Assembly: GCA_963732385.1 (NCBI GenBank)
Contig: CAVSZB010000007.1
Span: 416,001-480,000 of the forward strand
Direction of reading: 5' to 3'
Source of the DNA: an uncultured bacterium
Lineage (GTDB): Bacteria; Krumholzibacteriota; Krumholzibacteriia; LZORAL124-64-63
Length of the DNA: 64,000 nt
Below the pieces are notes generated by a model. It made no database searches, had not been told where the DNA came from, and saw only the letters and a program-made list of their open reading frames with translations. This document shows, one piece after another, positions 29,345 to 30,280 of the stretch; within the stretch, counting starts at the first letter, position 1; every line of letters starts with the position of its first letter. The position numbers were made by a program, and so were the translations under genes.

Positions 29345-30280
29345 CTAGGCGGGAGGGCCGGAAATCAGCCGGGCTGCCAGCGACGCCAGCGGCACCAGCA
29401 CCAGGCCGGCCATGATGTTCACTTTCACGGTCAGCGGATCGAGAATCGACGGCCGCCGCTGCTGGATCTCGCTCGTCAGGCGCCCGATCGAGGTCTTGCC
29501 TTCATGGCGATCGATCTTCCCCTTGAGCCGCAGGATCGCCTTGGTGTGGATCTGGCAGACGCGCGATTCGGTCACGTCGAGGATCTCGCCGATCTCCTTG
29601 AGCGTCAGCTCCTCGTAGTAGTAGAGCACCAGCACGAGCTGCTCCTTTTCGGGCAGTTCGGCCAGCCGGTGTGCGATCAGCTCGCGCATCTCCTGCTCGG
29701 CGATGCTGCGTTCGACATCGTCGGAGCGCGGATCGGGCAGATAGTCGCCCATGCCGGACTGCTGCTCGTCCTCGCCGTTGGGGTCGGCGTCCAACGACAT
29801 GATCGTGGCCAGCGAGACTTCGCTGAGCAGCCCGTCGAGTTCGCCGACCGGGATTCCCAGTTCCCGCGCGATTTCCTCGTCCGTGGCGGGGCGCCCGAGT
29901 CTCACCTCGAGCGTGGCGTACGCCAGTTCGACCTGCTTGGCCTTCCGGCGCAGCGAGCGGGGGAACCAGTCCTGGCTGCGCAGTTCGTCGAGGATCGCGC
30001 CGCGGATGCGCGGGATCGCGTAGGTCTCGAATTTTATCCCCCGCCGGTGGTCGAAATTGTCGATCGCCTGGATCAAGCCGAGCAACCCTGCCGAAACGAG
30101 GTCGTTGTACTCCACATAATGCGGCAGGCCGACGGCCATGCGCCCTGCCACGTACCTGACCACCCGGAGATAGTGCTCCACGAGACGCTGTCGCGCGTCC
30201 TGGCTGCCCATCTCCAGATAGGCCTGCCAGAGCTCCAGATGGGCGAGCGGGTTGTCCTGCGTCATCTCCTGCCCCTTCAT
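29345..30280 (-). CDS. fliA: FliA/WhiG family sigma factor (sigma28) with C-terminal hydrophobic extension
   Basis: DLVSAGLLGL, KFETYAIPRIRGAILDELR.QDW.PRSLR, YYYEELTLKEIG..LDVTESRVCQIH. Confidence 0.93.
   Translation of the reverse strand: MKGQEMTQDNPLAHLELWQAYLEMGSQDARQRLVEHYLRVVRYVAGRMAVGLPHYVEYNDLVSAGLLGLIQAIDNFDHRRGIKFETYAIPRIRGAILDELRSQDWFPRSLRRKAKQVELAYATLEVRLGRPATDEEIARELGIPVGELDGLLSEVSLATIMSLDADPNGEDEQQSGMGDYLPDPRSDDVERSIAEQEMRELIAHRLAELPEKEQLVLVLYYYEELTLKEIGEILDVTESRVCQIHTKAILRLKGKIDRHEGKTSIGRLTSEIQQRRPSILDPLTVKVNIMAGLVLVPLASLAARLISGPPA

Follow-up and report, generated by a model that had tools for sequence, protein, structure and literature searches.

A conserved membrane-type C-terminal tail on the flagellar sigma factor FliA in one family of uncultured bacteria points to a second layer of sigma28 control

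Results

The fliA locus

The 64,000 nucleotides analysed here (the window) hold a large flagellar cluster, at the end of which a minus-strand open reading frame (29345-30280) encodes FliA/WhiG, i.e. sigma28, with 311 aa counted from the first ATG. The real start may be Met6 (30265), since this residue is kept in relatives and the database entry has 306 aa. The gene order leads from the flgB/C region to flhF, the gene of an 81-aa protein, fliA, the gene of a 113-aa protein, an HDOD gene, the gene of a 168-aa protein and two more HDOD genes, and the flagellin genes start at the right end of the window (Table 1).

By its scores and its flagellar context FliA is a member of the FliA/WhiG family. 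Pfam places the sigma70 regions 2, 3 and 4 at residues 33-105, 115-179 and 206-253; TIGR02479 FliA_WhiG matches with 269 bits (cut-off 189.6), the match stopping at residue 256, and NF005413 with 242, above its cut-off of 201. The AlphaFold model of the core matches the WhiG/sigma28 structures 6PFJ, 6PFV and 9WSF over about residues 13-264, and none of them past about 269.

Table 1. Features of the fliA region and parts of FliA, with positions in the window
Feature	Position	Strand	Evidence
168-aa single-pass membrane protein, conserved downstream of fliA	27533..28039	-	no Pfam match
Extra HDOD gene	28043..28960	-	
113-aa soluble protein, conserved, directly after fliA, ends G-x-x-I-D-x-R-A/V	28976..29317	-	no Pfam match
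FliA, short C-terminal end and TAG stop; 5 aa here, 0-14 aa in the host family	29345..29362	-	ORF and alignment
FliA, remainder of the hydrophobic helix, residues 292-306, Pro/Gln/His mid-helix at 297	29363..29407	-	charge count, moment, dN/dS, model
FliA, motif V-N-I-M-A, residues 287-291; Ala291 a candidate cleavage point or mature end	29408..29422	-	conservation, dN/dS, natural protein ends
FliA, charged variable linker, residues 274-286	29423..29461	-	dN/dS 0.555; pLDDT <50 at 279-287
FliA, helix A, residues 256-273, amphipathic and basic, consensus IxRxEGKxSIG[RQ][LI]TxEI	29462..29515	-	alignment, dN/dS, moment, model
FliA/WhiG (sigma28) core, residues 1-255, regions 2/3/4	29516..30280	-	Pfam, TIGR02479, AlphaFold structure matches
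81-aa two-helix membrane protein, flhF-fliA interval, FlgV-like by position and shape	30358..30603	-	layout compared with the available part of PMC11607428
FlhF, degenerate	30610..31746	-	TIGR03499 44 bits, cut-off 174; no Pfam match
Hook protein FlgE, unusually long, 685 aa	41190..43247	-	
flgM, canonical anti-sigma28, same flagellar cluster	60446..60814	-	PF04316 29.3 bits, cut-off 25

No flhG lies between flhF and fliA at this locus. The extra HDOD gene, which separates the genes of the 113-aa and 168-aa proteins, is found also in G001, G002 and G016; in most of the family these small genes are adjacent.

Anatomy and constraint of the tail

Beyond region 4.2 FliA continues for 56 aa (29348-29515). 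The sequence-only reading of this DNA had announced an extension of about 55 aa with a hydrophobic stretch at 29363-29422, and the extension is real, with just that sequence and that stretch. In helix A, Gly261 is present in 61 of 61 aligned sequences, the median hydrophobic moment is 0.69 and dN/dS is 0.072; sister families carry weaker versions of it. The AlphaFold model, run on the 61-row alignment, forms it as a helix at 260-275 (pLDDT 59-73), joined by a low-confidence loop to the hydrophobic helix at 289-307 (pLDDT 76-80). The length of the linker ranges from 11 to 31 aa across the host family, with a median of 24.

The motif has the family form V-N-(V/I/L)-(M/T)-A. Its last column, that of Ala291, is Ala in 60/61 aligned tails and 110/117 database tails, and the residue that follows is Cys in 56, Gly in 29 and Ala in 12 (n=117 tails). 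The dN/dS of the seven columns ending at Ala291 is 0.076 and that of the FliA core 0.074—as determined by simple counting on 19 disjoint pairs—so that helix A and the motif are as constrained as the core. Over the 20 columns after Asn288, 41 of the 61 sequences have no charged residue, 18 have one and 2 have two; for this hydrophobic helix the median moment is 0.28 and dN/dS 0.286. Helix breakers occupy column 297 (Pro 25, Gln 22, His 5 of 61) and column 296 (Pro 15). Gln214, Val218 and Gly261 are near-invariant in the host family and differ in most outgroups; they could make up a putative docking site for helix A on sigma4.

Searched against solved structures the tail gave no match at E up to 10; against Pfam only stray weak matches appeared, for 1-2 of 56 members, and the best score against the Atlas was 0.78. 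These results mean no known membership and are not proof of absence. A sorting signal common to other proteins was considered and rejected, since tail profiles match FliA alone in the six frames of the genome. Among 1.84 billion representatives these profiles found 19 matches; of the 13 inspected, 2 were repeat artefacts and the others FliA pieces or odd tail-bearing fusions.

Occurrence of the tail in the class

A profile built from 56 tails matches 88 of the 208 genomes of the class, namely the host genome and 87 of the 90 genomes of its family, and none of the 117 genomes from other families of the class. The three family genomes missed by the profile are also without the adjacent small gene, so that the locus is probably unassembled there. 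Many genomes outside the host family have no FliA; where the same class has one outside this family, its tail is 24-41 residues long and without hydrophobic helix (9/9, plus two more), G075 being the exception. In other phyla FliA stops 5-12 residues past region 4.2 (32/32 loci, L099-L130). Conservation of the tail among orthologues is thus family-wide, and 201 of 214 distinct family tails retain 12-29 residues beyond the motif; these 214 pool all loci and proteins, and include four apparent frameshifts (L031, L070, L095, L153) and two unplaced fragments (P0131, P0133).

G075, of a sister family, has a FliA with a different 59-residue tail (L167:2239-2415) and a hydrophobic stretch at its end. 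Compared with the family tail it gives an hhalign probability of 0.2%, with an alignment over helix A alone; its core has Gln214 and Lys228 in common with the host family.

The sequence-only reading had taken the tail for real coding sequence, at the risk of a stop-loss error near 29510. Contigs of close relatives, on which this check rests rather than on reads of the host genome, span the junction and the helix and show no stop or indel near 29510 or in the helix: record 2 of X1 spans 29355-29566 with 9 differences and no gap, and the X17 records span 29294-29564 with a single insertion at 29336, outside the ORF. The sequencing runs contained relatives only, at small shares. GC3 is 0.90 in the hydrophobic stretch and 0.89 in the core, which is weak evidence for coding as the contig has 69% GC; conservation is the strong evidence. 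A neutral read-through or an assembly error would suit the absence of the helix from five lineages, but it has to face the tail in 87/90 family genomes, purifying selection on each of its parts, linker indels that preserve the frame, and the uninterrupted contigs of relatives; we hold it for extremely improbable, and the tail for genuine coding sequence. A stop-loss or frameshift artefact is rejected by the same presence, selection and contigs.

Hydrophobicity of the last helix

The best 19-residue Kyte-Doolittle mean is 1.97 here, with a family median of 1.67 and values of at least 1.6 in 40/61 sequences; the soluble FliI of the same window scores 1.85. A rough insertion energy, calculated from scale values with our own weighting, is +1.3 for the helix here and +1.9 in median. 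As references of the same window, six flagellar membrane proteins lie between -0.8 and -3.0 and eight soluble proteins between +3.4 and +10.4. The helices of the basal subclade (P-P-M-x-K) reach +3.4 to +5.2 in 11 rows, i.e. the range of soluble proteins.

What had been called a transmembrane-like helix keeps its nearly uncharged run of about 20 residues, but its hydrophobicity is marginal. By its sequence it would pass only marginally for a membrane helix: an ordinary helix of a protein surface would be more varied and more charged, and a typical anchor more strongly hydrophobic. As in tail-anchored proteins, the helix is single, C-terminal, nearly uncharged, about 20 residues long and followed by few residues. 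Summed over three of the mechanisms discussed below, membrane association is the likeliest reading, and a probable one.

Natural truncations of the helix

Five of the 214 distinct tails stop exactly after the Ala291 column: G008 (P0030), L204 and the clade P0059/P0062/P0085. G143 and P0160 stop inside the motif, two residues before this column. On the tree, made with FastTree without bootstrap, helix losses are five separate events, three at the Ala column and two within the motif. None of these events falls in the linker or mid-helix—P0133 is a possible linker ending, without context—and among the 214 tails none stops 1-11 residues past the motif, one frameshift apart. The truncations of G008, G143 and L204 are not single-base errors, since the helix-coding DNA is gone.

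In 93 intact tails, the 25 positions that precede the motif contain 853 codons one step from a stop, the first codon after Ala accounts for 60, and the 11 positions past that codon for 232. With these weights, three events at any single position have a p of about 0.001, a rough and post hoc value. Stops are favoured at the post-Ala codon, which frequently encodes Cys and is then a single change away from TGA; both exact truncations with known DNA sequence terminate in TGA. The clustering of truncations at the Ala291 column is a new observation. Four FliAs of the sister family have short tails ending in V-x-V or V-x-A. Our reading of these ends is that the motif may function as a free C-terminus, capped in the host family by the hydrophobic helix.

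As G143 and L204 keep the flagellar export genes without the helix, the latter is usual but dispensable. The flagellum of G008 is lost, and its FliA truncation may therefore be decay. In this genome, 98% complete, the region C16:143000-160200 (L235, L050) has no flagellin, FlhA or rod/hook match; the decayed cluster keeps, in order, fliG, fliM, fliN, fliL, motAB, a partial fliF, flhF, a flgM-like gene and fliA (81% identical), which would leave a stator and a C-ring with neither filament nor export gate.

FlgM and the small membrane proteins

The idea that the tail comes on top of FlgM, already part of the sequence-only reading, agrees with the flgM gene in the window (Table 1) and with a FlgM match in 34 of 36 family genomes, besides the host genome. 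As FlgM is still present, the tail would be an extra layer and no fused replacement; the replacement of FlgM by the tail was rejected on the same count.

The small membrane proteins encoded nearby had been put forward as partners of the tail; this did not hold for the 81-aa protein, which is not obligate. It has no Pfam or NCBIfam match, and no conserved C-terminal peptide was found by eye in the tails of its homologues. It has the layout of FlgV as described in the available part of PMC11607428—two membrane helices, a polar tail, and a gene between flhF/flhG and sigma28—a likeness of position and shape. It occurs in 84/90 genomes of the family and, above E 1e-6, in five of the other families; within the family it was lost at least three times. 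Its gene is missing in 3 of 88 tail-positive genomes (G008, G143, G148), and both true helix deletions are among these three. As a dedicated partner of the tail the 81-aa protein was nevertheless rejected: four metagenome loci without it (L175, L176, L177, L188) keep the helix, another, L204, does the reverse, and G143 sits in the clade of three of those four loci. Homologues of both small membrane proteins also adjoin tail-less FliA in other families.

Discussion

No alternative sigma factor is more widespread than sigma28, which the available part of PMC4598750 describes as soluble and held by FlgM. We tentatively propose that FliA of the host family is a lineage-specific, membrane-tethered pro-sigma28, clipped at or near Ala291 by an RseP-type protease, a mechanism whose every step we infer. 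The last helix would insert in the inner membrane with the sigma factor inside and a tiny stub outside, so that new sigma28, with FlgM bound, would be held at the membrane. An intramembrane protease of the site-2 (RseP) type would take up the motif in extended, strand-like form and cleave the chain at Ala291 or close to it, aided by the Pro/Gln break six residues on. The released sigma28 would end in the non-polar motif, and this free C-terminus might act as a turnover signal or as a binding peptide; such a job would explain that the motif is kept where the helix is lost. FlgM export would stay the main switch, the tail adding control over place, timing or amount. In its fullest form—FliA as a C-terminally anchored pro-protein freed by intramembrane proteolysis, whose new C-terminus times its own decay, the scheme of RseA moved into the sigma factor and stacked on FlgM—the proposal is possible, though short of probable.

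Near invariance and natural truncations together make Ala291 a specific candidate for the release site; if it were so, the truncations at its column would be genes encoding the processed form directly. RseP substrates are reported, in the available part of PMC4597795, to be N-in, with a small outside part, an unstable helix and strand binding. The features of the tail, with 0-14 residues following the helix, would match this geometry provided that the helix inserts. RseA is cleaved between Ala108 and Cys109, according to the part of PMC10024687 at hand, and the residue after the near-invariant Ala is mostly Cys, Gly or Ala; as the sequence specificity of RseP is low, the likeness of the Ala-Cys pairs is a weak one. 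When RseA and RsiW undergo site-2 cleavage, the C-terminus that becomes exposed directs degradation by ClpXP (PMC4598750, available part). The contrast between a motif as constrained as the core (0.076) and a helix that keeps its hydrophobicity over its sequence (0.286) also speaks for cleavage. An RseP-like M50 protease is encoded in the host genome (C7:801351-802673), about 350 kb from fliA and unlinked to it, and RseP is found in 61/61 genomes, tail-less ones included. On the other hand, retention of the motif would be expected for binding no less than for cutting, the helices of the basal subclade lie in the energy range of soluble proteins, and the higher AlphaFold confidence for sigma2 in the presence of the tail would suit a fold-back of the tail.

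If the helix were never cut, it could keep sigma28 together with FlgM on the inner membrane, close to the basal body, where FlgM would be handed to the export gate or transcription would proceed from a tethered factor, while the motif would bind a partner on the surface of the membrane. A helix of 20 residues with a low moment and almost no charge, whose hydrophobicity is kept while its sequence is loose, would serve such an anchor, helix A and the 11-31 residue linker providing slack; sigma factors with C-terminal transmembrane helices exist in ECF48 and ECF263 (PMC7826278, available part), and G008, which still has its fliA, lost the helix together with the export apparatus, rod, hook and flagellin. 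A permanent anchor is however expected to be more hydrophobic than a median of +1.9 (-0.8 to -3.0 for membrane proteins), its obvious partner, the 81-aa protein, is missing from the four helix-bearing loci named above, and the export genes persist in G143 and L204 despite the loss of the helix, which leaves the permanent tether rather doubtful. As a mere turnover tag, the hydrophobic end would direct free sigma28 to quality control at the membrane, by FtsH as in the case of sigma32, lowering its level and activating nothing. For this the marginal hydrophobicity would be enough, the SRP does bring sigma32 to the inner membrane for control (PMC3866087, available part), and non-polar Val/Ala termini end four sister-family short tails and three truncated lineages; but a tag would work without an Ala that hardly varies and keeps its distance from the helix break, and two truncated forms end in Arg or Ser, so we regard this role as quite improbable.

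Membrane entry would be unnecessary if the helix docked on the sigma2 surface of its own protein, at the site of RNA polymerase and FlgM, and damped sigma28 in cis. The AlphaFold scores suggest as much: the pLDDT blocks of residues 11-100 are 92, 97, 97, 87, 79, 95, 94, 90 and 88 with the tail and 82, 90, 91, 76, 65, 88, 85, 78 and 76 without it, sigma4 being about unchanged, and the pTM of 0.53 for 258 aa is only slightly lowered, to 0.51, for 311 aa, a free tail being estimated to give about 0.45. Insertion of the helix in a membrane is moreover borderline, and for the basal subclade it looks poor. But docking is read here from confidence scores, and AlphaFold tends to place hydrophobic helices wherever a patch of surface is exposed. 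Hydrophobicity extends around the whole helix, whose sequence drifts next to a nearly invariant sigma2, and core positions are not jointly relaxed in the seven sequences without the helix. Covariation of the tail with the core is confined to a few clade-marker columns, which indicates shared descent; with about 93 effective sequences, over which shared descent dominates, it was discarded as evidence. Fold-back inhibition is, on this balance, unlikely.

Cleavage near Ala291, the reading that we prefer, can be set beside several known systems. Canonical sigma28 (FliA/SigD/WhiG) with FlgM (PDB 1RP3, 9WSF, 6PFV; PMC4598750, available part) is alike in core sequence and fold, in its place after flhF and in the company of flgM and flagellins; it stops 5-12 residues past region 4.2, whereas FliA here runs 56 on, into a hydrophobic helix. 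Pro-sigmaK and pro-sigmaE of Bacillus (SpoIVFB site-2 protease; PDB 8VJL) likewise carry a short, weakly hydrophobic extension on a sigma factor of group-3 type, possibly removed here too by a membrane protease. Theirs is N-terminal (PMC4598750, available part) and has a dedicated protease, whereas that of FliA is C-terminal, its cleavage is putative, and the locus has no protease linked to it. With RseA and RsiW, cut by RseP and RasP, FliA would share a putative N-in single helix, an Ala then Cys or a small residue near the inner face, a helix breaker and a new C-terminus. But these are anti-sigma factors, cut after site-1 trimming of a large outside domain, while here the sigma factor itself is the candidate substrate and has no outside domain. 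FliA might work like pro-sigmaK or RseA, by analogy, and belongs to neither.

Sigma32, like FliA, is a group 3 sigma factor, and its control at the membrane (PMC3866087, available part) would be a further parallel. Unlike FliA here, it relies on an internal region and is not known to carry a helix at its C-terminus. ECF48 and ECF263, as presented in the available part of PMC7826278, resemble our case in the fusion of a sigma factor to C-terminal membrane helices. They belong to group 4, with extensions of up to about 400 aa bearing a zinc finger (ECF48) or 5-7 helices (ECF263), and these mostly stand in for the anti-sigma factor; FliA here has region 3, unlike their core, and FlgM is kept. The literature searched, from whose scope most subscription papers fell, held no account of FliA or a group 3 flagellar sigma factor with a C-terminal hydrophobic tail.

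A membrane-type tail conserved throughout a family on sigma28 points to a second layer of control, which would give a much-studied regulator a new mode of control. Were the tail cut, FliA would be a C-terminal pro-sigma factor, the mirror image of pro-sigmaK; were it left uncut, it would test whether a tethered sigma factor can work. This concerns one family of an uncultured phylum, in which several lineages manage without the helix, and a mechanism that we infer from sequence and a model. The question would be cheap to test, with a tail of 56 residues, a single candidate residue, and helix-less natural variants as controls.

Apart from the tail, a sigma28-like promoter lies about 200 nt upstream of 481740 (G000:C7), before the third of three tandem flagellins, with 2 mismatches to the consensus and without a chance control; a weaker one precedes the second. 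The 113-aa and 168-aa proteins end in short conserved peptides (roughly V-E-Y-x-F-R for the latter) after variable low-complexity linkers, a design that is also that of the FliA tail motif.
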